A stretch of DNA of 64,000 nt from Candidatus Binatia bacterium (GTDB lineage: Bacteria; Desulfobacterota; Binatia; Bin18). Below the pieces are notes generated by a model. The model was not told where the DNA came from, did no database searches, and saw nothing but the letters and a program-made list of their open reading frames with translations. The position numbers and the translations under genes are program-made. Positions 2,797-14,909 of the stretch are shown here, piece by piece (the first letter of the stretch is position 1; each line of letters opens with the position of its first letter). The stretch covers positions 32,001-96,000 of the forward strand of contig CAXXHG010000024.1 in NCBI GenBank assembly GCA_963666315.2, read 5' to 3'.

Positions 2797-2862
2797 TCAG
2801 AATTATTCTGAGAATAATTCTCAGAATAATTCTCAGAATAGTTGCTATAATAGTTACTATAG
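2797..2862. promoter_or_regulatory. Overlapping 7-1-7 Fur-box-like palindromes with a 12-bp period
   Basis: TCAGAAT-T-ATTCTGA (2797-2811, perfect), TGAGAAT-A-ATTCTCA (2809-2823, perfect), TCAGAAT-A-ATTCTCA (2821-2835). AT-rich and directly before the ATG at 2863. Confidence 0.55.
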
Positions 2863-3450
2863 ATGAGTAGTGCCAGCCGTATCTTCTTTTCTCTCTTGTT
2901 GCTGACAGTGATTGGTTGCTTAGGCTCCCCTGTCGCGTGGGCGCATCGAGACAGAGGACCGGATGACCCCTGTCGACGGGAAATCGGAACTTCGCTCCTC
3001 CATATCACCGTCTACCAGACCCAGTTTGACCCCGTGGCTGAATATTGTGAAGAAGTCCCACACGCGGGGAAGGCCTTCTTAGTTGTAGATGTGACCCCGG
3101 ATCTGTGGGGGATGCCCATCGGGGTGGAACTCGTTGCGACAAATGAAGTCGGCCAGACGCGTACTATCCTCTCGCTGCCTACACAAGTGTATGAGCGCGG
3201 GGTGGCCAATACGGAAGTGGTTTTGAACCCTGAGGTCAGCTATGAGGTGCGCGTTGTCTTAGAGCTGGGATCCGACCGAGAACCGCAGGAATTTTCATTT
3301 CCCTTTCAGGTTGCAGCATGGTATAAGGCCCTGATCATCCCAGCCCTGATTGTGCTCGGGCTGATCGTTATCATGGCCGTATCCGTAGTTCGGTATAATG
3401 TAGTCTCGCGGCGGGAAGAAGCGCTAGCGGAACAAATGGATGCAGTATAA
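2863..3450 (+). CDS. PmoD/AmoD-family periplasmic copper protein, copy 1
   Basis: Signal peptide AWA|H; 'DPC-x9-HITVYQ...EYCEEVPHAGKAFLVVD' PmoD/AmoD pattern; C-terminal TM anchor. Confidence 0.8.
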   Translation: MSSASRIFFSLLLLTVIGCLGSPVAWAHRDRGPDDPCRREIGTSLLHITVYQTQFDPVAEYCEEVPHAGKAFLVVDVTPDLWGMPIGVELVATNEVGQTRTILSLPTQVYERGVANTEVVLNPEVSYEVRVVLELGSDREPQEFSFPFQVAAWYKALIIPALIVLGLIVIMAVSVVRYNVVSRREEALAEQMDAV

Positions 3451-3513
3451 GGTGATAGCATCACAAAGTGACAACGTCACCAACACAGGCGCGAATATAG
3501 AGGAGGGACACTT

Positions 3514-4362
3514 ATGGCTCAGGCACAAGCTGTGCAAAAGGCACCAAAGGGTTCTGGCGACGGCTCGATGACGAGTGGTAGCCCTGTCAATCCGATGGAC
3601 TGGTCGGTTGGATGGCATCCGTTGTTCTGGGGCTGCGGGCTCATCATGTTAGCCAACGTCTTTTTCTGGTACTGGAATTACGCCTTCATGTTAACGGCTG
3701 GACTCAACTCGGCCAGTCCGGAATTCAGCACGTATTACATGACGCTGTTCTGGGGCGAGCTCATCGTCTTAGGCATCTTTAGTGGCGTATGGTTTGGCTG
3801 GTTGATACGGACCGGCCGTGCCATTCAAGGCCAAGAGTGCTCGCCTGCCGAAGAGGTACGCCGGATCGCAATTTTGTGGAGCCTCATTGGCGCGCTGAGT
3901 CTGTCCGTTTATATGGAAGCGAGCTTCTGGCCCAACTGGGATGGATCTTGGCATCAAACCATGGTGCGGGACACCGCGCTCACGCCGACCCATATTCCGA
4001 TGTTTTATTTCTTCTTCCCCCTGTCGGCCATTCTGGCCATCGGCACCTATGTCTACGGGCGGTATTACATTCCCGCTCTGTACGGTAAAGACAAGGGCTT
4101 TCCGTGGTCGTTCTTCTTGTTGATTAGTGCGTGTGCGCTCGAAGTTATGGGTGTTGCGTTCAACGAATGGGGCCATAGTCTGTGGATCTCGGAGGAGATT
4201 TTCTCCGTGCCCTTTCACTGGCCGTTCGTCATCTATGGCTGGCTTGCCGCCGGCATGTTCGCCGTGTGGGGTGAGACTGCCCTGCGTCTATACGAGGTTG
4301 AGAAGATTGAGGAGGACGCCAATTTAGAATCCTCGCTTGAGCCGAACATGGTCGCTGACTGA
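3514..4362 (+). CDS. pmoC: Copper membrane monooxygenase subunit C (PmoC/AmoC family)
   Basis: 'DGSWHQTMVRDTALTPTH' (CuC Asp/His/His) and 'NEWGHSLWISEEIFSVPFHW' (CuD Asn/His/His); RBS GGAGG. Confidence 0.95.
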   Translation: MAQAQAVQKAPKGSGDGSMTSGSPVNPMDWSVGWHPLFWGCGLIMLANVFFWYWNYAFMLTAGLNSASPEFSTYYMTLFWGELIVLGIFSGVWFGWLIRTGRAIQGQECSPAEEVRRIAILWSLIGALSLSVYMEASFWPNWDGSWHQTMVRDTALTPTHIPMFYFFFPLSAILAIGTYVYGRYYIPALYGKDKGFPWSFFLLISACALEVMGVAFNEWGHSLWISEEIFSVPFHWPFVIYGWLAAGMFAVWGETALRLYEVEKIEEDANLESSLEPNMVAD

Positions 4363-4442
4363 TACTGGTACAGGTTTGCGTTCGATTGAACACGGATAAC
4401 CTCAGATAACCTCGGGGATCCTGGTACAGAGAGGCAGCACGC

Positions 4443-5246
4443 ATGGCGGCAGGCACGACAACGGTAACGGACCTTGCAGACGCAGCCGAACGGCAAAAAC
4501 GGCTCGAACTCAAGGAACTGCTCAACAAAAAATACAAATGGCTAGACTGGAAGTGGGACCTCGTCTTCTGGACCACGGCCATCTTCGTGGTTGCCGGCGC
4601 TGGCGATATTACCAAGCAGTTGTTCGCCGGCGATTGGGACTTCTGGACTGACTGGAAAGATCAGCAGTGGTGGCCGGTTATCACGGCCTTTGCCACCATC
4701 ATCATCCCGTCCGCGCTCCAATACATTCAGTGGGCAGCCTGGCGGTTTCCGACCGGCGCGACCTACACCGCCTGCTGCATGTTTATGGCGGCCTGGGTGG
4801 GGCGTTATTTTCAGTGGGATTTGGCAACCCACTACCCGCTGAACTTTGTGTGGCCCATCTCCTTGGTGTGCGCTGGGATCTTGATGGACTGGACCCTGAT
4901 GAAGACGAAGAGCTTCATCCTGACATCACTCGTTGGCGCGCATGTCTGGGCGATCGCGGTGTGGGCGTATAATTATGTTCCGTTGGCTGCCTTTCTGCAG
5001 CCGGCCCATTTTATGGACCATGTAATCACGATCGCGGATGTCCAAGGAATCGCGTATATCCGGTCACAGACGCCGGAATACCTGCGCATGATCGAGCGCG
5101 GTGCGTTGCGCAGTTTCCTGGGTGAGACCCAGTATGTCTCGCTGGTGTTCGGTGGTACTGTCGCGTTTCTCGGATACTGGGTGGGTCAGTTCATTGGCCG
5201 CTACTTGGCAATTTGGCCGATTCGACGCTACTTGAAAACCTTGTGA
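4443..5246 (+). CDS. pmoA: Copper membrane monooxygenase subunit A (PmoA/AmoA family), divergent
   Basis: 'GDWDFWTDWKDQQWWP', 'RFPTGAT', 'YPLNFVWP', 'YIRSQTPEYLRMIERGALRSF'. Confidence 0.95.
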   Translation: MAAGTTTVTDLADAAERQKRLELKELLNKKYKWLDWKWDLVFWTTAIFVVAGAGDITKQLFAGDWDFWTDWKDQQWWPVITAFATIIIPSALQYIQWAAWRFPTGATYTACCMFMAAWVGRYFQWDLATHYPLNFVWPISLVCAGILMDWTLMKTKSFILTSLVGAHVWAIAVWAYNYVPLAAFLQPAHFMDHVITIADVQGIAYIRSQTPEYLRMIERGALRSFLGETQYVSLVFGGTVAFLGYWVGQFIGRYLAIWPIRRYLKTL

Positions 5247-5253
5247 GACGGCT

Positions 5254-5589
5254 ATGATGAGCGTAGCGAAATCGGTCAGAAATTGCATAGTGCCGTTTGT
5301 GTTCATGTGTATTGCGCCCTCGCTGGCGCATGCGCACGGGATGGACGCGGCGGCGATGGCGCCACCTCTTATTACCTCCGGGCTGCTGGCGTTTGTGTGT
5401 TATTGGTTGGTGATGTTGTGGCCTGCGTCAAAAAGAGAAGGCGCCTGGATGAATGGGTCTGGGGCTGCGCAGCCCTCGGAAAAGTTTCAGACCATACGCA
5501 TTAAGCGCAAGCCGCGCCTGCGTGTCATAGAGACGAGCAGGCAGCGCGAGGACGACCAGCCGGCGACAAGGAGAGCGGCCGATGGCTAG
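5254..5589 (+). CDS. Small single-pass membrane protein between the A and B subunits (unknown family)
   Basis: Starts 8 nt after the pmoA stop and overlaps the pmoB start by 8 nt. Signal-like 'AHA|HGMDAAAM', TM 'LITSGLLAFVCYWLVMLW', basic tail. Confidence 0.75.
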   Translation: MMSVAKSVRNCIVPFVFMCIAPSLAHAHGMDAAAMAPPLITSGLLAFVCYWLVMLWPASKREGAWMNGSGAAQPSEKFQTIRIKRKPRLRVIETSRQREDDQPATRRAADG

Positions 5590-6829
5590 GCGATTCGTCA
5601 TCAGCGTCTGCACGCTGGCTCTTGCCGGACTTATCAGTGTCCCCAGGGTGTTCGCTCATGGTGAAGCCGCTGACGAGCCTTTTCTCAAGAACATGACCAC
5701 GGCGTTTTTCAATGTATCGATTTCTCCCACCGAAATCGAAGTCGGAGAGCCTATTCGCATTACTGGTTCCGTGAAGATCTTGGAGATCTGGCCGCATACC
5801 TTAGATACACCGGAAATGGCCTCCATTATTCCCGTCGTGCCTGGTCCGGTGTTTGTCTTGAGGGAACGGCTGGTCAATGGGCAGGCCTCGATAGGTTCGT
5901 TCTTCGCGCAAAAAGGCGGCATTTATGAGTTCGACATGGAGCTCTTGGGCAAAGAACCCGGAGACTGGCACGTCCATCCCGGTATAGCCATCCAGGGGAC
6001 GGGCACGCTGCTGGGACCAGGTGAATGGGTCCGAGTCAAACCCAGCGCTACGCCGCTTGAATTTCCGGTGACCTTGCTGTCCGGGGAGACGATCGAACTC
6101 AGCACGTATGGCGGTCAATTCGTCTGGTGGTGGTCATTTGCCGGATTCTTGCTCGGTGTCGTCTGGATATTGTACTGGACGCTGAACAAAAGGACGGTGG
6201 CAACCCTTGCCGTAACTATCCAGCTTCCGGTCAATGATGATGCGCCCGACATTGGCTTGATCACCCCGCGTGACCACATGTGGATGAATGTCATTGCCGG
6301 CGTCACCTTGGTGATGCTCGTTGTCGGCTGGACCTATGCCACAACAAATGCACCGGTCCGGTGGCCGCAGCAGACCGACTGGTTTACGCCCCGCTTTATT
6401 TCTTCGGGCGAAAAGATGGCCGAGGTGCATACCAACGGAGCAACCTTTGATGAGGCGTCCGACACCCTGGAAATGAAGCTCCAGGTTACGAATGTGCTAG
6501 ACAGCGAAATCCAGCTCAAGCAACTCATCGTGGCCATGGCGACGTTTGTGAACGGCGGCGAGCAGGAGCAAGCCCAAGCCGGGCCGAGTGATTTCGTTGG
6601 CGCTCTGGAAGTGTCGCCGAATGGAACCGTTGCCCCTGGAGAAACCAAAGATCTCACGTTGACGGTAACGAGCACGCTGTTCAGTCAAGAACGGCTGATA
6701 CCTCAGAACGCCCCGCAGCAATTTCTTGGTGGAGTCCTCCGGTTCGAGAATGCGCAGGGCGAGCATGAATTAGTGACGGTTCGTTCGGGTGTCATATCAA
6801 CACAGTTCCGTTCGACCTACCGCCCGTAA
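5582..6829 (+). CDS. pmoB: Copper membrane monooxygenase subunit B (PmoB/AmoB family)
   Basis: Signal 'VFA|HGEAADEPF' (N-terminal His), 'PGDWHVHP' (CuB His-x-His), 'LLGPGEW', two TM helices, second cupredoxin domain 'VAPGETK'. Confidence 0.95.
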   Translation: MARRFVISVCTLALAGLISVPRVFAHGEAADEPFLKNMTTAFFNVSISPTEIEVGEPIRITGSVKILEIWPHTLDTPEMASIIPVVPGPVFVLRERLVNGQASIGSFFAQKGGIYEFDMELLGKEPGDWHVHPGIAIQGTGTLLGPGEWVRVKPSATPLEFPVTLLSGETIELSTYGGQFVWWWSFAGFLLGVVWILYWTLNKRTVATLAVTIQLPVNDDAPDIGLITPRDHMWMNVIAGVTLVMLVVGWTYATTNAPVRWPQQTDWFTPRFISSGEKMAEVHTNGATFDEASDTLEMKLQVTNVLDSEIQLKQLIVAMATFVNGGEQEQAQAGPSDFVGALEVSPNGTVAPGETKDLTLTVTSTLFSQERLIPQNAPQQFLGGVLRFENAQGEHELVTVRSGVISTQFRSTYRP

Positions 6830-6882
6830 ACGGTCTTGCCGGCAGCCCGACTCCCCCTGTTGGATGGAATCCAGGAATCAAA

Positions 6883-7464
6883 TTGGTGGGCAGTATCTTG
6901 TCAGTGTTCTCTCTCGTCGCTATCTTCCTCGTGCCAATATCGGCCTGGGCGCACGGTGGCGTCGCGATCGACATGGACCCGTGCGTGCAGCGTGCCGGCG
7001 CCTATCTGGTCCATTTTTCTGCGTACCAACCGCAAGTGAATGCAATCGAGGAATTCTGTAGTAGCGTTCCGCAAACGGGCAATGTGATCCTCGTTTTCGA
7101 TCTGATTGATCCCGAACTGCGCAAGAAATCGGCTGCCGTTCGCATTGTTGAAGAGACCGGGGCGGCTGAACCTCGTCTGCTGCTCGATATCCCGCCAAAA
7201 ATCTATCCCAATGGGGTCGTGAATGCTGAGGTTAGGCTTGATACGCCGGGCCGGTATACGGCCATTCTGACGATTGATGATGTCGACGACTCGATCGAAT
7301 TTCCTATCCGCGTGGCGGTGCTCTCGACCACGATGATGGTGCTGATCGGTGGCATCGTGGTCGGCAGTGGTGTGGGCTATTATGCGGTCAGTCGGAAACA
7401 GGGTTGGCCTCCATTCAAAGCAAAAAACGAGTCGTCACTCCGGTTGGTGAAAGGGGAAGGATGA
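6883..7464 (+). CDS. pmoD: PmoD/AmoD(AmoE)-family protein, copy 2
   Basis: 'AWA|HGGVAIDMDPC...VHFSAYQP...EEFCSSVPQTGNVILVFDLID'; C-terminal TM anchor; lies directly after the B subunit. Confidence 0.88.
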   Translation: MVGSILSVFSLVAIFLVPISAWAHGGVAIDMDPCVQRAGAYLVHFSAYQPQVNAIEEFCSSVPQTGNVILVFDLIDPELRKKSAAVRIVEETGAAEPRLLLDIPPKIYPNGVVNAEVRLDTPGRYTAILTIDDVDDSIEFPIRVAVLSTTMMVLIGGIVVGSGVGYYAVSRKQGWPPFKAKNESSLRLVKGEG

Positions 7465-7494
7465 GCGGAAAACGCCCTGCCGGCGGGAGAGGCC

Positions 7495-7520
7495 CCGTTC
7501 GTGCTGAGCTTGTCGAAGCA
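7495..7520. repeat. REP-like half element
   Basis: CCGTTCGTGCTGAGCTTGTCGAAGCA; same family as the paired element at 20721-20806. Confidence 0.7.
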
Positions 7521-7544
7521 GGAACGCGAAGGGATAATGATCAA

Positions 7545-7664
7545 ATGGAAACAATATCGGAGCGCCAAACGAAGCGCGTGGCGGACTATGCGGCAGGCCG
7601 TGCAGATGCTCAAGCAGTTTTGAAGGACCTTGAGATGCTGCAGTTAGAGTTGCTGAAAAACTGA
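7545..7664 (+). CDS. Possible 39-aa peptide
   Basis: 'METISERQTKRVADYAAGRADAQAVLKDLEMLQLELLKN', co-oriented in the cluster with a purine-rich upstream region. No recognised homology. Confidence 0.3.
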   Translation: METISERQTKRVADYAAGRADAQAVLKDLEMLQLELLKN

Positions 7665-7730
7665 GACCACGACTATCCTTTGTCCCTTCCCCCCTTTCCC
7701 TTACGCGTTCCTCACAGTACATGGTGGACG

Positions 7731-9425
7731 ATGCTGGTGCGTCGTTTGCTCTTTGTTTTTCTCTTGTGTGGCCTCGTCGCGGGTAGTGCGATCTTTGTCG
7801 TGCCGCGCTCCTGGCTGCCCGCTCCACTCAAAAACCTGGCGTATCGCTATATTGGTGAAACAGCCTATCGAGCCCCCCCGGAAAGTCGTCACATTGATCC
7901 GGTGCCAGTCGAGCCGTTTTGTCTGGATAAGCATCCGGACTGGCGTAAACGCCAGACGGTTGAAGGCGTAAGCATAGAAGAATCGCCTGTGTGTGATCCG
8001 GATAATCCAGCCGAAGTCGCCGCTTTTGTCAAAGGCACGAACAATATTTCTGTGCATACATTGATGCAGACACGGCTGACGCCGACTACGGTGCTGAAAG
8101 AGAACGACGTGGACGGTGATGGCGATCCGGATGAGATCCATATCCGGTTCGAGGTAGTGGAGTTAAACGGGTACTCGCCGGATGATCCTGCTCCCTTTCC
8201 GGCGTATGCCATCGCTCCCGGAGTACAGCCCGGCCTGTGGGTATTTGCTCCGAAATCGCGCGGCATGGCGACCGAAAATTTTGCAAGCGAGGACGCCCAC
8301 GCCACTCTCCGCGCCCCGTCGCCGGTTATCCGCATTGAACAGGGCGACACGCTACGCGTGACGTTGGAAAATACCCACTATCTGCCGCATACGATACATT
8401 TCCACGGAGTTGACCATCCCTTCGTCGATGCCGCCGGGGAGGGCAATGACGGTGTCCCTATTACGAGTGAAATGCCGGTCGCGCCGGGTGAGAGCCGAAT
8501 ATATGAAATGACTCCACGTCAGACCGGGACCATGTTTTATCACTGCCATGTCCAACCCCAGGTGCATATTCTCATGGGACTGCAAGGCATGTTTGTGGTT
8601 GAGGAGAATCGGCCGAATAATTGGCTACAGACCTTAAACGTCGGCGCTGGTCGGGTCCGGCATTCGTCGGTAGCTATCCGTGAGACTTTTGATCGCGAGT
8701 TTGATCTGCACTATCAGGATATCGATCGTTCGCTGAATAATATGATTCAGACTGCCAATGATCCGCGTCTGATCGCGCAAGCAACGAATCGGCGGTACGA
8801 TATCACGGATCACAGTCCGGACTACTTCTTACTGAACGGGCGCTCGTTTCCGTACACGATGCGTGAATCCCTTATTGTGGTTGTGCCTGATGAAGATATC
8901 AAACTGCGCGTATTGAACGGTGGTGCCGAAGGGCTGTCGCTCCATACGCACGGACATAAAGTCACGATTACCCACTATGACGGCGTCGAGCATAATCCGG
9001 CTGCGCAAATCACGCGCGATGTCGTCTGGGTCAGCCCCGCCCAGCGGGTGGACCTGCACCTCAAAACAATAAACGACGGGCTGCATAATTACGGCGCAGG
9101 TATCTGGCTCCTACACGACCACAAGGAAAAGGCGATTACGACCGACGGCATCAACCCTGGTGGGAATATCAGCGCCATTGTGTACAAAGCGTTTCTGGGC
9201 GAAGCCGGCCGGCCTCAAACCCAGGGCATGGATTGGGCGCCGTTTTTTACCGAAGAGTATTACCAGAAGAAAATTCCGATCTGGGCCGGATTGGATGAGA
9301 GAGGACTGCTTGGAGAGGCCGGTGGTGAGCCTTTCCCTTTCAGCTATGCGCTCTTGTGGGGCCTGGGCATAGGGCTCTTACTCAGCGGTGCGTTTGCGCT
9401 CGGTCGGTCCGTGCGGCGAGCGTGA
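7731..9425 (+). CDS. Multicopper oxidase, two-domain type-C-like, with N-terminal extension and C-terminal membrane anchor
   Basis: Domain 1 'HTIHFHG' and 'YHCHVQPQVHILMGL' (T1 site); domain 2 'LHTHGH' and 'WLLHDH' (no T1 Cys); hydrophobic N- and C-termini. Confidence 0.88.
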   Translation: MLVRRLLFVFLLCGLVAGSAIFVVPRSWLPAPLKNLAYRYIGETAYRAPPESRHIDPVPVEPFCLDKHPDWRKRQTVEGVSIEESPVCDPDNPAEVAAFVKGTNNISVHTLMQTRLTPTTVLKENDVDGDGDPDEIHIRFEVVELNGYSPDDPAPFPAYAIAPGVQPGLWVFAPKSRGMATENFASEDAHATLRAPSPVIRIEQGDTLRVTLENTHYLPHTIHFHGVDHPFVDAAGEGNDGVPITSEMPVAPGESRIYEMTPRQTGTMFYHCHVQPQVHILMGLQGMFVVEENRPNNWLQTLNVGAGRVRHSSVAIRETFDREFDLHYQDIDRSLNNMIQTANDPRLIAQATNRRYDITDHSPDYFLLNGRSFPYTMRESLIVVVPDEDIKLRVLNGGAEGLSLHTHGHKVTITHYDGVEHNPAAQITRDVVWVSPAQRVDLHLKTINDGLHNYGAGIWLLHDHKEKAITTDGINPGGNISAIVYKAFLGEAGRPQTQGMDWAPFFTEEYYQKKIPIWAGLDERGLLGEAGGEPFPFSYALLWGLGIGLLLSGAFALGRSVRRA

Positions 9426-9438
9426 AGGGAAGCGTAGT

Positions 9439-10155
9439 ATGGGGGTACATTTTCAAAAGATCGTGCGGAAAATCATGAGAGTACGAAAAGGGCAGCCACA
9501 TAGGGCTGCCCCTACACTGCTTGTGCTCATTATCTCGGTGCTTCTTTCAAGTCTAGTCAGTTCGGCCCAAGAGCATCAGCACCACCCGATGCAGCATAAT
9601 ATGCAGCTAGATGAGACCGGCATGGTCATGAACGAAAACACCGACCAGTTGCCGCGTGGCTGTCCTCGTATTGCGGGCGAGCAATCAATTACTGTCCGCG
9701 CAGGGAAAGAATTTGCCTCTCCAGGCAGCATGTTTTCTTATGATCAGCATGAATGGCATGTCGAGCCGTGTACCAAACTCACCGTGACGCTTGAGAATAC
9801 GGACAACGTCCGCCATCAGTGGATGCTGCACGGCCTGCCGCGCTATGTGTATCTGCAGGGCATGTTCACTTTAGAGGTGGCCGGCCGAGGGCAACGCACG
9901 GGTACGTTTATCCTCCCCGCAGGCAACAAAACCTATCTGGTTCACTGCGACGTGTCCCAGCATATGGAAAAAGGCATGAAAGCGCAGCTGAAGGTCGGCA
10001 CTGGGGACGGCGATTTGCCGAGTATTCCCGGCATAACCGGCCCACGTGTGTATGATACGTATCCCCTGGTCTGGAACTGGTGGACGCATGGGGCTTTGCT
10101 ACTGACGGGGATAGTCAGTGTGGTTTTTGTCGGCAGGCACTTGCATATTTTCTGA
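9439..10155 (+). CDS. Membrane-anchored cupredoxin (type-1 blue copper)
   Basis: 'HQWMLHG' and 'YLVHCDVSQHMEKGM' (H-C-H-M); His/Met-rich N-terminus 'QEHQHHPMQHNM'; C-terminal TM. Start codon uncertain (9439 or 9475). Confidence 0.85.
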   Translation: MGVHFQKIVRKIMRVRKGQPHRAAPTLLVLIISVLLSSLVSSAQEHQHHPMQHNMQLDETGMVMNENTDQLPRGCPRIAGEQSITVRAGKEFASPGSMFSYDQHEWHVEPCTKLTVTLENTDNVRHQWMLHGLPRYVYLQGMFTLEVAGRGQRTGTFILPAGNKTYLVHCDVSQHMEKGMKAQLKVGTGDGDLPSIPGITGPRVYDTYPLVWNWWTHGALLLTGIVSVVFVGRHLHIF

Positions 10156-10189
10156 GAGATCTGAAGCTCGCGAGCTTGACTGCCTTCCC

Positions 10190-10218
10190 TTGACCTTCAA
10201 AATAAAAATGAGTAGGGT
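10190..10218 (+). promoter_or_regulatory. Sigma70-like promoter of the PQQ dehydrogenase
   Basis: TTGACC-N17-TAGGGT. Confidence 0.5.
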
Positions 10219-10236
10219 TCGACCACATTCGTGTAA

Positions 10237-10271
10237 TAAGACATCGCAGTAAGACATCACAGTAAGACATG
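10237..10271 (+). repeat. 13-bp direct repeat x2.7 in the PQQ-ADH leader
   Basis: TAAGACATCGCAG TAAGACATCACAG TAAGACATG. Confidence 0.85.
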
Positions 10272-10290
10272 ATTTGGGGAGGAATAACCC

Positions 10291-12003
10291 ATGCGAGATT
10301 TCTGGTTGCGGGGATTGCTATATTTTACCCTCGCTCTCGTCCTTGTATCGCCCTCGACTCTGTATGCCGATCATCATGGACAGAGTGACCATGCCCTCAA
10401 GCCGGTCACGCATGAGCGCTTGGTTAATAGTGCCGCCAATTATGCTGACTGGCTGATGTACGGCGGGAATTATGAAGGCTGGCGTTTCAGCGCACTCGCC
10501 GACATCGACCGTCAAAATGTAAAGAAGCTCCAGGCTGCGTGGATTTTTCAGACCGGCGTGCCTGCCCAAATGCAGGCTTCGCCCGTGGTGGCCGATGGCG
10601 TGATGTATGTGACTGCGGCGTATAACAAAATTTTCGCCTTAGACGCGGCGACGGGCAAGCCGCTGTGGAAATACGACCATTCATTGCCGGATGATATGCG
10701 CATATGCTGTGGTCCCGGCAACCGTGGCGTCGCGCTTGCCGGGGATAAAGTCATCATGGCCACCCTGGATGCGCGTGTTGTGGCGCTGGATCGCAAAACC
10801 GGCGAGGTGGTGTGGAATACAGAGGCCGACAACTACGCCCGAGGCTTCAGCTTCACGCTCGCGCCGCTGATTGTCAAAGACAAAGTCATCGTCGGCATTG
10901 CCGGTGGTGAATACGGCATACGCGGTTATATCGACGCGTATGATGTTGAGACCGGAGAGCGTCAGTGGCGGCGTTACACTGTCCCCGACGAGGGTGAGCC
11001 CGGAGTCGAAACCTGGGCGGGCGACTCATATAAAAACGGCGGGGCCCCGGCTTGGGTGACCGGTTCGTATGACGCTGACCTGGACCTTGTATATTGGGCT
11101 ACCGGAAACCCTGCGCCGGACTGGAACGGTGATGGACGTGAAGGGGATAACCTGTACTCCAACTCCGTTCTGGCACTTGATCCGGAGACGGGCGAGGTCA
11201 AATGGTATTTCCAGTTCACCCCGCACGATGTCTGGGATTATGACGGCAATACCGGCCTGTTCCTGCTTGACGTTATGCGTAGTGGTCAATCTGTCAAAGC
11301 CTTGGCCCAGCCGAATCGTAATGGCTTCATGTATGTGCTGGATCGCACCGATGGAAAATTCCTGCACGGCGCGCAATATGTCGAACAGCTGAACTGGGCG
11401 AAGGGGCTAGATGAAAAGGGCCGCCCACTGGTTGACCCCAAATATGTTCCCATGAAAGGCGGCAATCTGGAACTGATCTGTCCGGGCAATGCGGGCGGCC
11501 AAAATGGGTCGTACGCTGCGGCCTATAGTCCGCGTGTTAACCTCATTTTTGTGCCGACGATTGAGAGCTGCGCCAAAATGGAAAAAGCGAAGTCTATTTT
11601 CATCAAAGGCATTCCGTTCTGGGGCGGCGGTCCTGGCCAAACGCAAGGCGACCTGGGGGTCGCGTATGGCCATGTCTCAGCTATTGATCCTACCAGCGGC
11701 GAAGTAAAATGGCGCTATAAGGACGAGTGGCCCATGATGGGTGGTGCACTTGCGACCGCAGGCGGATTAGTTTTTACCGGGAACCAACAGGGCTATGCGC
11801 TCGCGCTAGACGAGGCGACTGGAAAAGTCTTATGGAAGTTCCAAACCGGCTCGGCTGTCCGCGGGCAACCGATTACGTATAAAGTTGGTGGCAAGCAATA
11901 TGTGGCCGTGCCGAGTGGGGCCGGCGGCTTGGTCGTCGATATTGTGGGAAAATACCCGCACACGACACTCGGCAGTTCGGTTGCCGTGTTTGCGCTGCCT
12001 TAG
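10291..12003 (+). CDS. PQQ-dependent alcohol dehydrogenase (methanol/ethanol family), probable lanthanide type
   Basis: Signal peptide; vicinal 'CCG'; 'GGEYG' Glu; 'TGNPAP' Asn; 'PHDVWDYDG' D-x-D; Trp-docking propeller motifs; no cytochrome c domain. Confidence 0.92.
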   Translation: MRDFWLRGLLYFTLALVLVSPSTLYADHHGQSDHALKPVTHERLVNSAANYADWLMYGGNYEGWRFSALADIDRQNVKKLQAAWIFQTGVPAQMQASPVVADGVMYVTAAYNKIFALDAATGKPLWKYDHSLPDDMRICCGPGNRGVALAGDKVIMATLDARVVALDRKTGEVVWNTEADNYARGFSFTLAPLIVKDKVIVGIAGGEYGIRGYIDAYDVETGERQWRRYTVPDEGEPGVETWAGDSYKNGGAPAWVTGSYDADLDLVYWATGNPAPDWNGDGREGDNLYSNSVLALDPETGEVKWYFQFTPHDVWDYDGNTGLFLLDVMRSGQSVKALAQPNRNGFMYVLDRTDGKFLHGAQYVEQLNWAKGLDEKGRPLVDPKYVPMKGGNLELICPGNAGGQNGSYAAAYSPRVNLIFVPTIESCAKMEKAKSIFIKGIPFWGGGPGQTQGDLGVAYGHVSAIDPTSGEVKWRYKDEWPMMGGALATAGGLVFTGNQQGYALALDEATGKVLWKFQTGSAVRGQPITYKVGGKQYVAVPSGAGGLVVDIVGKYPHTTLGSSVAVFALP

Positions 12004-12945: not shown

Positions 12946-13803
12946 ATGAAAATTGGCGTCTTTGAGTTTGTTATTGATACATCGGTTGATCCCGCTGTGA
13001 TCGCAAAGCGAGCCGAGGAGTTGGGTTTTGGCTCGTATTGGGTGCCTGAGCATGCTGTTATTCCGATTAAAACGAGTACGCCCTATCCAGGCTCGGACGA
13101 CGGAATAATTCCAGATGCATATGGGCGTATCACCGATCCGTTTGTCTCCCTCGCTCGTGCGTCTGCGGTGACCAAGACTATTGAGCTCGGCACCGGTATT
13201 TGTCTGATTCCAGAACATAATCCGCTCGTACTGGCTAAGGCCGTGGCGACTTTAGACCATTTTTCAGGTGGCCGTTTTATCTTCGGCATTGGGGCCGGCT
13301 GGCTTAGAGAAGAAACCGAAATCATGGGTGGTGATTTTGACCACCGCTGGGGCCAGACCAAGGATGCCGTCCTGGCCATGAAGGAATTGTGGACCCAGGA
13401 AGAGGCCGAGTATCACGGCAAGTATTACAACTTCCCGGCTGTCCGCTCTTTCCCCAAACCTGCCAGGAAACCACATCCCCCTATTTTCATGGGCGGATCG
13501 TCCAAATATGTCTTCAAACGTGTGGTCGAATGGGGCGACGGCTGGATGCCTGTTCTCTCGCCGGTCGAATATATCAAAGAAGGGCGGCAACGCCTCAATG
13601 AGCTGGCTGAGCAAGCCGGCCGCGACCCCAAGGAAATCGCTGTCATGGCCTTCGGCTGGCCTGGAAAATTCCGTACCGGAGACGAAATCAAAGAACTTGA
13701 ATCAGCCGGTGTCGATCATGTCACTATTTGGTTGCAGCAAAGCGAAAGCGGAGAAGAGGCTGTCGTGGCGGAATTGGAGTCGTTAGCGAAGTCAGTTCTA
13801 TAG
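12946..13803 (+). CDS. LLM-class (probably F420-dependent, Rv2161c-like) oxidoreductase
   Basis: 'AEELGFGSYWVPEH', 'DPFVSL', 'LAKAVATLDHFSGGRFIFGIGAGW', 'PKPARKPHPPI'. Confidence 0.9.
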   Translation: MKIGVFEFVIDTSVDPAVIAKRAEELGFGSYWVPEHAVIPIKTSTPYPGSDDGIIPDAYGRITDPFVSLARASAVTKTIELGTGICLIPEHNPLVLAKAVATLDHFSGGRFIFGIGAGWLREETEIMGGDFDHRWGQTKDAVLAMKELWTQEEAEYHGKYYNFPAVRSFPKPARKPHPPIFMGGSSKYVFKRVVEWGDGWMPVLSPVEYIKEGRQRLNELAEQAGRDPKEIAVMAFGWPGKFRTGDEIKELESAGVDHVTIWLQQSESGEEAVVAELESLAKSVL

Positions 13804-13901
13804 GTGCGGGAGGGGCGCCGCATTTTTCTATGATTTTGCTTGGTCGTTTCTCGTCTTGCAAAAAATGCTGCGCCCTTACGGTGTGAGAGGAGGCCGCTGT
13901 C

Positions 13902-14909
13902 TTGATAAAATTCGGCATCATGGTGATGCCTCAGCATCCGCGAACGGATTCGCCGGTAAAGCGGTTCCGAGAGGCGGTTGCGTTGACGCGTATAGCACGT
14001 GACGCCGGGCTGGACTCGATTGCGTGTGGCCAGCACTTCCTCGCTCCGCCGTATCAGAACATCCAAAGTCTGCCCCTTCTTGCGCGGCTTGCGGCCGAGA
14101 GTGGTGCGATGTCACTCGTGCTGTCTGTCATTCTTCTGCCGCTCTACAGTCCAGTCGGCATCGCCGAAGATGTTGCCTCGCTTGACGTCATCAGTGAAGG
14201 CCGCGTTGTCTTTGGTGTCGGGCTGGGCTACCGGGATATCGAGTATCAAGCTTTTAATACGCGCCGACGTGAGCGCATTCCGCGTTTTGAGGAATCTTTG
14301 GCACTCATCCGGCGCTTGTGGACAGAAGAGGCGGTCTCGTTTCAGGGCAAGCATTTCAGTATCGAAAGCGCGACCTGCACGATACGGCCCGTCCAGCAGC
14401 CGCATCCGCCTATCTGGATTGCCGCGAATAACGATAGTGCCATTGAACGGGCAGGGCGGCTGGGCTGCTCTTGGCTCGTAAATCCGCATGCCACAATGGA
14501 AACGCTACAACGCCAGATGAAGCTATATACAGATACCCTGGTTGCATCCGGTCATCATGCTCCTGCAGAAATCCCCGTTATTAAAGAGATGCATGTCGCC
14601 AAGACGCGCGAAGAGGCGATTGCGGTTGCCCAGCCCTATTTAGAGAAAAAATATCAAGCGTATGCAGACTGGGGACAGGATAAGGAACTCCCTGGCGGGG
14701 AGTCCTTTCGCATGTCGTTTGAAGCCTTAGCTAAAGACCGCTTCATCCTGGGTAGTATTGAAGAGGTTATTCAACAGATTGAGGTCCATCACCGGCAGCT
14801 TGGGATTAACCATTTCATCTTTCGCATCTGGTGGCCGGGCATGGAGGCCTACCACGCCTACCGCGTGGTCGAGCTGATGGCTGAATACATCATCCCGTAT
14901 TTCCGATAG
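13902..14909 (+). CDS. LLM-class flavin-dependent oxidoreductase
   Basis: 'IAEDVASLDVISEGRVVFGVGLGYR', 'RPVQQPHPPIWIA'. Confidence 0.9.
   Translation: MIKFGIMVMPQHPRTDSPVKRFREAVALTRIARDAGLDSIACGQHFLAPPYQNIQSLPLLARLAAESGAMSLVLSVILLPLYSPVGIAEDVASLDVISEGRVVFGVGLGYRDIEYQAFNTRRRERIPRFEESLALIRRLWTEEAVSFQGKHFSIESATCTIRPVQQPHPPIWIAANNDSAIERAGRLGCSWLVNPHATMETLQRQMKLYTDTLVASGHHAPAEIPVIKEMHVAKTREEAIAVAQPYLEKKYQAYADWGQDKELPGGESFRMSFEALAKDRFILGSIEEVIQQIEVHHRQLGINHFIFRIWWPGMEAYHAYRVVELMAEYIIPYFR

Follow-up and report, generated by a model that had tools for sequence, protein, structure and literature searches.

Can a copper membrane monooxygenase (CuMMO) work without the polar patch that has been proposed as its tricopper site? 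CuMMOs govern the oxidation of methane, ammonia and short alkanes, and the location of their active site was for decades a matter of dispute. The question is raised by an operon in a 64,000-nucleotide stretch of contig CAXXHG010000024.1 from a Candidatus Binatia bacterium, hereafter the window. The patch lies at the interface between helix 1 of PmoA and PmoC, by the CuC site, and is reportedly the tricopper site put forward by Chan's group; we take PmoC Glu154 to be one of its members. The proposed tricopper residues are PmoA His38, Met42, Asp47, Asp49 and Glu100 (PMC9145241), and the section of PMC12576850 on this site places His38, Met42, Asn103, Glu100 and Arg104 around the modelled ions. 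To judge from its genes, the window carries a complete, selectively maintained CuMMO operon. In its enzyme, His38, His40, Met42, Glu100, Asn103 and PmoC Glu154 are all lost, and the ligands of CuB, CuC and CuD are kept under strong constraint. The original prediction, a by-eye reading of the DNA, had claimed that the pocket is rewritten while the copper ligands remain intact; this is borne out, with CuB, CuC and CuD all present and the genes under purifying selection.

Residues were mapped by phmmer and HMMER alignments to PDB chains of solved particulate methane monooxygenase (pMMO) as well as ammonia monooxygenase (AMO). The window PmoA aligns with PmoA of Methylococcus capsulatus Bath (1yew_B and others; phmmer E value 5.6e-46) with no gaps through both patch motifs. 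The Bath segment GSYHIHAMLTMGDWDFW pairs with GAGDITKQLFAGDWDFW of the window, placing Asp55 opposite His38, Thr57 opposite His40 and Gln59 opposite Met42, and the phmmer alignment thereby reproduces the predicted exchanges H38D, H40T and M42Q. PmoA D55-I56-T57-K58-Q59 (4605..4619, + strand), a 'DITK(Q/L)' motif, takes the place of H38-I-H40-A-M42. Bath D47 and D49 are retained as D64 and D66 (4632..4640, + strand). In the second motif, Bath 'LLLGEWINRYF' pairs with 'MFMAAWVGRYF': A117 occupies the E100 position, G120 the N103 position, and R121 retains R104 (4791..4805, + strand). The phmmer alignment also recovers the E100A exchange, which had been read from 'GEWINRY' and 'AAWVGRY'.

On the PmoC side, the window protein was aligned with Methylocystis PmoC (4phz_K; E value 1.1e-40) and with Nitrosomonas europaea AmoC (9cl6_C). 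The pMMO/AMO motif 'SFFTEQDG(T/A)WH' stands opposite 'SFWPNWDGSWH', with E154 replaced by N141 and Q155 by W142. P140-N141-W142 (3931..3939, + strand) is found in place of T153-E154-Q155 and directly precedes the CuC ligand D143. Bath numbers for PmoC were obtained by a constant offset to the ligand numbers given in the relevant part of PMC12576850, the aligned chains themselves being Methylocystis PmoC and N. europaea AmoC. Both chains reproduce the predicted replacement of E154 by Asn with an added Trp ('FTEQDGTWH' to 'WPNWDGSWH'), and the interval first assigned to the feature, 3910-4815, spans the altered codons at 3934-3939 and 4605-4793. The canonical patch, PmoA His38/His40/Met42/Glu100 with PmoC Glu154, is therefore absent as such: the window has D55/T57/Q59/A117/N141, and only Asp47, Asp49 and Arg104 of the patch are retained.

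The copper ligands themselves are complete. As assigned in the part of PMC12576850 on these sites, CuC is bound by Asp156/His160/His173 and CuD by Asn227/His231/His245 of subunit C in Bath numbering, and this numbering maps by constant offsets to D143/H147/H160 and N217/H221/H235 of the window PmoC. The CuC ligands (3940..3993, + strand) are D143 (3940-3942), H147 (3952-3954) and H160 (3991-3993), with R152 in the second sphere; the CuD ligands (4162..4218, + strand) are N217 (4162-4164), H221 (4174-4176) and H235 (4216-4218). The second-sphere residues Arg165 and Phe177 correspond to R152 and F164, both present. In PmoB, the CuB ligands on the + strand are H26 (5657-5659), H130 (5969-5971) and H132 (5975-5977), equivalent to Bath His33, His137 and His139. 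H26 directly follows the predicted signal-peptide cleavage site and H130/H132 form an HxH pair. A check of the codons confirmed that all ligands of CuB, CuC and CuD are encoded. Subunit C thus has the full CuC and CuD sets and subunit B the histidine brace of CuB, as expected of a CuMMO.

Relatives were gathered by a scan of genome contigs, in which 552 of 577 matched stretches were confirmed by tblastn, and the best 80 were kept. Their PmoA is 67-96% identical to that of the window. Subunits C, A and B were taken from each locus, giving 81 PmoA sequences (the window and 80 relatives), 78 of PmoC and 79 of PmoB. The record titles are mostly of Candidatus Binatia, Binataceae or 'delta proteobacterium' metagenome-assembled genomes (MAGs), with a minority of Actinomycetes, Acidimicrobiales, Dormibacterota, Chloroflexi and Methylomirabilota. 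Named carriers among the protein matches include Carbonactinospora thermoautotrophica, Caldinitratiruptor microaerophilus and a Lentzea sp. Three Binatia-type operon contigs with 82-86% PmoA identity (L024, L028 and L031) are titled as Enterobacteriaceae or Klebsiella pneumoniae MAGs, almost certainly through mis-binning or mislabelling.

In Bath numbering, position 38 of PmoA is Asp in 79 of the 81 sequences (Asn in one, a gap in one) and position 40 is Thr in 80 (one gap). Position 41 is Lys in 69, Arg in 10 and Met in one, with one gap; position 42 is Gln in 49 and Leu in 31, again with one gap. Asp is found at both positions 47 and 49 in 81/81, Gly at position 103 in 81/81 and an Arg codon at position 104 in 81/81. 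Position 100 always bears a small residue (Ala 46/81, Ser 21, Thr 14). In PmoC, position 153 is Pro and position 154 Asn in 76/78 each, the other two being gaps, and position 155 is Trp in 70/78 (Gln 3, Ser 2, Glu 1, gap 2). Every ligand of CuC and of CuD is likewise kept in 76/78 with two gaps, so that the predicted conservation of the PmoC D/H/H and N/H/H sets holds across the relatives as well as in the window; the PmoB histidines H26, H130 and H132 are kept in 78/79, 75/79 and 75/79. The new patch residues therefore match the copper ligands in degree of conservation. Because they are nearly fixed across the window and its 80 relatives, the substitutions are a hallmark of the lineage.

Constraint is visible at the level of single codons and of whole genes. 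Asp55 is written GAT in 45 sequences and GAC in 34, Thr57 uses four synonymous codons, and Asn141 is AAC in 69 and AAT in 7, the residue being fixed each time. Such synonymous turnover at the substituted sites is site-level constraint. The ratio of nonsynonymous to synonymous substitution rates (dN/dS), calculated by the Nei-Gojobori method, is 0.089 (pmoA), 0.150 (pmoC) and 0.158 (pmoB) in the comparison with L003, the closest relative, whose dS of 0.20-0.24 is unsaturated. With the 27 remaining listed relatives of each subunit, the values that could be computed range from 0.03 to 0.17 at saturated dS (above about 1); saturation prevented an estimate of dS for one pmoC pair and two pmoB pairs. 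Purifying selection, for which the original prediction had named dN/dS as the check, is supported by the unsaturated comparison (0.089-0.158).

How far does the rewritten patch extend in the CuMMO family? An exhaustive search of 1.84 billion representatives clustered at 50% identity yielded 179 matches at E <= 0.001, of which the best 150 were taken. From these, 114 rows of 100-330 amino acids were aligned by MAFFT, many representatives being fragments. The N-terminal motif aligned in 72 of the 114 rows, 18 of the DIT type and 54 others among the matches listed. Of the 54 non-DIT rows listed, 37 have His at position 38, 30 have Met at position 42 and 53 retain D47. Position 100 is covered in 30 of the listed non-DIT rows; Glu is found there in 10/30 and the full His38/Met42/Glu100 triad in 8/30. 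Scoring the 50%-identity representatives with NCBIfam models to name the pMMO and AMO clades gave no useful separation, and the pMMO/AMO residues were therefore read from the PDB alignments.

By these alignments, loss of 'D-site' residues is common across CuMMOs, and what is specific to the DITK clade is the combination of D/T/K/Q-A-G in PmoA with P-N-W in PmoC. The original prediction is modified accordingly. D-site loss is nothing special among CuMMOs, with E100 kept in just 10/30 and the triad in 8/30 usable representatives. The prediction had also named, as a result that would undo it, a common occurrence of the same substitutions in characterised enzymes. This is partly the case, since the hydrocarbon monooxygenase (HMO) of strain NBB4 has H40N, D49S and E100Q; the exact D/T/Q/A/N set is nevertheless clade-specific and absent from solved pMMO and AMO. 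A multiple alignment across CuMMOs thus upholds the substitutions themselves, shows them spread clade-wide in DIT-type sequences and confines the exact set to that clade.

A maximum-likelihood tree of 38 hand-picked rows (quick search, LG+G4, with support only from the Shimodaira-Hasegawa-like approximate likelihood-ratio test, SH-aLRT) included the window, its paralogue, NBB4, 11 loci, 15 full-length representatives and 9 named or long matches. All DIT-type sequences fall in a single clade of 21 rows (SH-aLRT 100), whose sister is the non-DIT representative P0172 (support 88). The clade stands apart from NBB4 HmoA with P0178 (99) and from the second paralogue of the genome with P0183 (100). 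The pMMO/AMO-like representatives are in another group of the tree, in which the deeper branching order is not resolved. The window is thus placed outside the NBB4/CF8-type HMO clade, in a tree without a Nocardioides CF8 sequence. The simplest reading of this topology is that the rewritten patch arose once, at the base of the DIT clade. The lineage is a distinct CuMMO group, recognizable by the PmoA motif 'DITK(Q/L)LFAGDWD' and common to Binatia, Actinomycetes, Dormibacterota, Chloroflexota and others. With 80 relatives and the 38-row tree, the pattern is a synapomorphy of a large multi-phylum clade and no peculiarity of the present gene.

What does this lineage say about the site of catalysis? 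In the 7ev9 structure, as treated in the corresponding part of PMC12576850, a single small site filled with water is lined by His38, Met42, Glu100, Asn103 and Arg104, with Arg104 hydrogen-bonded to Glu100. Quantum refinement gave 'no support' for copper at the tricopper site; the best model there has two waters hydrogen-bonded to His38, Asn103, Arg104 and Glu100 (PMC12576850). Structures determined in native membranes are described as having bis-His, CuB, CuC and CuD sites only (relevant passages of PMC11725843). A 2026 review of AMO places the active site in subunit C and cites HMO mutagenesis (passages in PMC13058606), and AmoA transmembrane helix 1 with AmoC transmembrane helices 3-6 make a channel holding CuC and CuD (passages in PMC12804982).

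An active enzyme of the window type logically cannot use a His38/Met42/Glu100 copper cluster. The inference of a PmoC active site drawn in the original prediction is in this sense right, if the enzyme is active, and adds little, the field already holding this view. The lineage is nonetheless the most complete natural removal seen of the PmoA-side 'tricopper' ligands. A member shown to be active would serve as a clean control, supplied by nature, for the model of a PmoC active site, and also as a handle on the role of the conserved polar patch in pMMO and AMO.

The locus was described over window positions 2863-12003, all on the + strand, with searches of its open reading frames (ORFs) against Pfam and NCBIfam and by phmmer. 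The gene order is pmoD-pmoC-pmoA-x-pmoB-pmoD, followed by genes for a multicopper oxidase, a cupredoxin and a pyrroloquinoline quinone (PQQ) alcohol dehydrogenase. Subunits C, A and B are encoded contiguously, each above its Pfam gathering score by a wide margin: the pmoC-like gene (3514..4362, 282 amino acids) reaches 152 bits with PF04896 (cut-off 26.7), the pmoA-like gene (4443..5246, 267 amino acids) 189.8 bits with PF02461 (cut-off 27.5) and the pmoB-like gene (5582..6829, 415 amino acids) 240.9 bits with PF04744 (cut-off 22.7). The NCBIfam equivalogs TIGR03078-80 and NF041557/640/641 served as the test for canonical pMMO or AMO, and all scores fall short: 198.1 against 290 and 172.1 against 318 bits for PmoA, 165.6 against 319 and 148 against 280.6 for PmoC, and 259.9 against 336 and 183.5 against 394.9 for PmoB. 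With high Pfam scores and every pMMO/AMO equivalog cut-off missed, the enzyme is therefore a true CuMMO that is neither a canonical pMMO nor a canonical AMO.

The small ORF x (5254..5589, + strand, 111 amino acids) lies between pmoA and pmoB in a C-A-x-B layout; its end runs 8 nucleotides into the start of pmoB. It has no family match in Pfam or NCBIfam searches, and an uncurated blastp comparison finds a match at the same position in 65 of the 80 relatives' loci. Two pmoD-like genes, paralogues with about 29% identity, flank the pmoCAxB core. The first (2863..3450, + strand) encodes a signal peptide, a periplasmic domain and a C-terminal transmembrane helix and has zero Pfam or NCBIfam match; it is also found 5' of pmoC at many relatives' loci. 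The second (6883..7464, + strand, 193 amino acids) matches the PDB entry 6cpd_A, 'PmoD', with a phmmer E value of 2.1e-07 through query residues 34-132, aligned Cys included. Its translation has a hydrophobic C-terminal stretch, and together with its position beside pmoCAB this similarity suggests a PmoD/AmoD-like protein. Both pmoD-like genes hold their positions in the closer Binatia relatives.

Downstream (3') of the operon are a multicopper oxidase gene (7680..9425, + strand, 581 amino acids; PF07732, PF07731 and PF00394) and a gene for a cupredoxin-like protein (9388..10155, + strand, 255 amino acids; PF07731 25 bits, cut-off 20.4). Both translations have a hydrophobic stretch near the C-terminus, and both genes sit between the operon and the PQQ dehydrogenase gene. 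The two proteins are possible electron-transfer or copper-handling partners and would join the two PmoD paralogues and ORF x in a conserved accessory set. The PQQ-dependent alcohol dehydrogenase (10291..12003, + strand, 570 amino acids) is PedH-like and scores 608.9 bits with TIGR03075 (cut-off 480). Its best PDB matches are ethanol dehydrogenases (6zcv and 6zcw, E value 1e-126), compared with 1.7e-103 for XoxF (6dam). An orthologue with 85-89% identity lies 4.8-5.0 kb downstream of the DIT-type pmoA in 5/5 single-contig genomes of the genus. Further 3', past an adenylate kinase gene, two genes for luciferase-like F420-dependent oxidoreductases occupy 12946-14909, the first above the TIGR03619 cut-off and the second slightly below it. 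Near the other end of the window, overlapping ORFs on the - strand (237-1213), about 1.6 kb upstream of the first pmoD-like gene, resemble by eye a frameshifted tyrosine recombinase or integrase. They might mark the boundary of a mobile island; the single integrase-like ORF that was scanned, 560-1213, has no Pfam match.

The genome holds a second CuMMO operon of C-A-B order outside the window (contig 43 of the assembly, L001:554-3595). Its PmoA is 33-36% identical to the window PmoA and differs from it in the patch: His38, Met42 and PmoC Glu154 are kept, and positions 40 and 100 hold Ser and Ala, respectively. Among 18 further genomes of the genus that were searched, 17 have a close match (82-89% identity) to the second pmoA and 15 have matches to both CuMMO types. 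By comparison with the Binatota accounts in the parts of PMC8262859 and bioRxiv 10.64898/2026.02.02.703227 on pmoA types, it probably corresponds to the TUSC-like type that has been reported from Binatia. In its pmoB, an exact 31-nucleotide tandem duplication (L001:2784-2845) causes a frameshift and leaves ORFs of 200 and 195 amino acids; the gene may truly be inactivated, or the assembly may be wrong here. The presence of a CuMMO with His38, Met42 and Glu154 in the same genus provides a within-organism pair for dissecting the role of the patch.

Taken as a whole, the explanation that we consider likely is that of an uncharacterised CuMMO lineage in which the patch was replaced once, catalysis takes place at CuC/CuD and the substrate is a C2-C4 hydrocarbon. 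PmoC would activate O2 and hydroxylate the substrate at its conserved CuC/CuD centre; CuB in PmoB is intact as well. The rewritten patch would be a second-sphere, water-network, hydrogen-bond or interface element rather than a metal cluster, made up of PmoA Asp55, Thr57, Lys58, Gln/Leu59, a small residue at 117 and Gly120, together with PmoC Pro140-Asn141-Trp142. Asp55 may replace Glu100 as the partner of the invariant Arg121; the geometry of 7ev9, in which His38, Glu100 and Arg104 touch shared waters, makes such a pairing plausible (site description in PMC12576850). Trp142 and Pro140 are neighbours of the ligand Asp143 and may give the copper centre a different entrance. The substrate would be a short-chain hydrocarbon, probably a C2-C4 alkane or alkene, and the alcohol product could then be oxidised in the periplasm by the adjacent PedH-like dehydrogenase, whose syntenic position hints at C2+ hydrocarbons. 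A substrate range different from that of pMMO, as the original prediction suggested, is on this analysis plausible, the evidence for it being the conserved PedH-like dehydrogenase gene nearby.

Several points weigh against this explanation. The Asp55-Arg121 pairing and the water-network role are proposed from the sequence. The substrate assignment leans on one neighbouring gene and distant relatives, and by E values NBB4 HmoA is about as distant from the window PmoA as is pMMO. Some Binatota with the same CuMMO type carry methanol dehydrogenases, so that methane may be a substrate too (passages on these genomes in PMC8262859). Because the scores are far under the NCBIfam equivalog cut-offs, transfer of function from pMMO or AMO is barred. 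The relatives are kin, and neither the residue counts nor the codon turnover are independent events. Literature searches found no assayed member of the DITK clade and no paper tying Carbonactinospora or Caldinitratiruptor to CuMMO function. As to expression, contigs from libraries labelled metatranscriptomic in three studies cover pmoC-pmoA-pmoB; one of 1778 nucleotides spans 3468-5243 with 106 differences (about 94% identity), and two others, from a third study, match the window without a difference over 194 and 196 nucleotides. These contigs, a weak hint of expression, may hold carried-over DNA, and their cover is biased to the genes used in the search; the absence of cover in the flanks (2800-3270 and 6725-7500) is meaningless, the runs having been picked with the pmoCAB stretch.

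Other explanations differ in what they make of the patch and of the substrate. The lineage could be a functionally distinct CuMMO class in which a coordinated second-sphere rewrite beside CuC retunes either the delivery of protons or water or the opening of the substrate channel. Glu100/His38/Glu154 would give way to Asp55/Lys58/Asn141/Trp142, and the acidic partner of the Arg would shift from position 100 to position 38. We hold this to be rather unlikely; if true, substrate range or affinity would be unlike those of pMMO, AMO or NBB4-type HMO, and the class would sit in an uncultured CuMMO-bearing group that is among the most widespread in soils and sediments. A true methane monooxygenase, perhaps of the high-affinity or atmospheric kind and with a patch irrelevant to substrate choice, would agree with the conservation of all three copper sites, with the placing of the neighbouring PQQ dehydrogenase in the methanol/ethanol family TIGR03075 and with the methanol dehydrogenase homologue reported for 5/9 Binatota genomes of the same CuMMO type (PMC8262859, part on these genomes). 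It is unlikely: the DITK clade does not group with verified pmoA, the pMMO/AMO-like representatives lie in a separate group of the tree, scores are below the pMMO equivalog cut-off, and the dehydrogenase resembles PedH ethanol dehydrogenases more closely than it does XoxF or MxaF. Quite unlikely, too, is a specificity for ammonia, for acetone or another oxygenate, or for larger or cyclic hydrocarbons, set by the new polar residues (Asp, Lys, Asn and Trp) by CuC. The replaced residues are strongly conserved on a helix and a loop framing the CuC/CuD channel, and CuMMO homologues have reportedly been tied to acetone (PMC8630023) and to methylated cycloalkanes (bioRxiv 10.1101/2022.11.07.515388). 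However, solved AMOs keep the H/H/M/E/E set that the window has lost, making it not AMO-like at those positions, and no hydroxylamine-handling genes turned up in the 34 kb inspected, where no search was aimed at them.

Could the patch still bind a metal, through a carboxylate-rich set of Asp55, Asp64, Asp66 and perhaps Asn141? The three Asp are nearly invariant and lie within 12 positions of one another, and His38 gave way to Asp, not to a hydrophobic residue. All His and Met donors are nevertheless lost, the conserved Lys58 and Arg121 in the patch favour salt bridges, and the homologous pMMO site holds water, not copper, by the quantum refinement in PMC12576850 (section on this site); we regard metal binding as very unlikely. 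That the operon is a decaying or non-functional copy, as the second CuMMO operon of the genome and the integrase-like ORF near the window start might suggest, is extremely improbable and, on the evidence of selection, as good as refuted: every frame is intact, dN/dS lies at 0.03-0.17 and the ligands are kept. Moreover, both CuMMO types occur in 15/18 other genomes of the genus searched, and in this assembly the frameshifting duplication sits in the pmoB of the other operon. Three simpler explanations were discarded: chance resemblance by E values of 1e-40 and below, a pseudogene by the selection data, and a feature peculiar to a single genome by its presence in 80 relatives. The uncharacterised lineage with CuC/CuD catalysis and a C2-C4 substrate thus remains the likely reading. 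Its practical value would lie mainly in giving expression work and substrate profiling a well-defined target, and in the caution that a Binatia 'pmoA' should not be equated with methanotrophy.

Among known systems, pMMO (M. capsulatus Bath and Methylocystis; PDB 1yew, 7s4h and 4phz) belongs to the same three-subunit family, has identical CuB, CuC and CuD ligand sets and shares the conserved GDWDFW and NEWGH motifs. It has His/His/Met at PmoA 38/40/42 and Glu at 100 (Bath), with Glu at PmoC 154 (Methylocystis), whereas the window has Asp/Thr/Gln, Ala and Asn at these positions. The full set of differences from pMMO is H38D, H40T, M42Q, E100A and N103G in PmoA and E154N and Q155W in PmoC, with scores under the NCBIfam equivalog cut-offs. 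Bacterial AMO (PDB 9cl6, 9pxf and 9leg) has the same fold family and copper ligands but keeps His38, His40, Met42 and Glu100 (9pxf_D) and 'FTEQD' in AmoC (9cl6_C), none of which is found in the window enzyme.

NBB4 HMO (HmoCAB of Mycolicibacterium chubuense, plasmid NC_018022.1, L083) is likewise a CuMMO outside the pMMO/AMO group, of C-A-B order, with CuB, CuC and CuD ligands present. It is a recombinantly expressed and mutagenised model, as summarised in the corresponding part of the review PMC13058606. E100, D49 and H40 are missing here too, replaced by Gln, Ser and Asn, respectively. Unlike the window enzyme, it keeps His38, Met42 and PmoC Glu154 (His/Asn/Met at PmoA 38/40/42), and its locus is without an x gene or a pmoD-like match. 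HmoA is 39-43% identical to the window PmoA and belongs to a separate clade of the tree.

The closest system is the Binatota 'Actinobacteria/SAR324-type' CuMMO, from the same phylum, the window PmoA being 84-96% identical to genes of Binatia MAGs. The parts of Murphy et al. 2021 (PMC8262859) on these operons describe CAB, CAxB or CAxxB layouts with pmoD in some genomes, two pmoA clades ('Actinobacteria/SAR324' and TUSC cluster 2) and conserved PmoB His33/137/139; for the former type, they hold it uncertain whether methane, gaseous alkanes or both are oxidised. The window shares with that type the C-A-x-B layout with pmoD and the PmoB His33/137/139, and at the family level the two are the same. 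The bioRxiv preprint 10.64898/2026.02.02.703227, in its parts on Binatia, lists 81 MAGs with 'Binatales pmoA-like' sequences placed among hydrocarbon monooxygenases, uses the label 'Putative pmoA Binatales' and reports little genomic support for methanotrophy, chiefly in MAGs with TUSC-like pmoA. Desulfobacterota_B (Binatota) is also among the HMO-bearing phyla of PMC12533140. In these parts, PMC8262859 and the preprint examine PmoB ligands and phylogeny, not the PmoA/PmoC patch or the CuD ligands. Full-text literature searches, with subscription papers outside their scope, found no statement that tricopper-site residues are unconserved outside methanotrophs, and term searches in PMC6215863 and PMC9038741 returned nothing relevant on tricopper-site conservation. 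The operon type is thus already reported from Binatia. What the analysis adds is the residue-level definition of the lineage (PmoA 'DITK(Q/L)', a small residue at 117 and Gly120; PmoC 'PNW'), the evidence that the replacement residues are themselves constrained, and the second CuMMO of the genus as a natural comparison pair.

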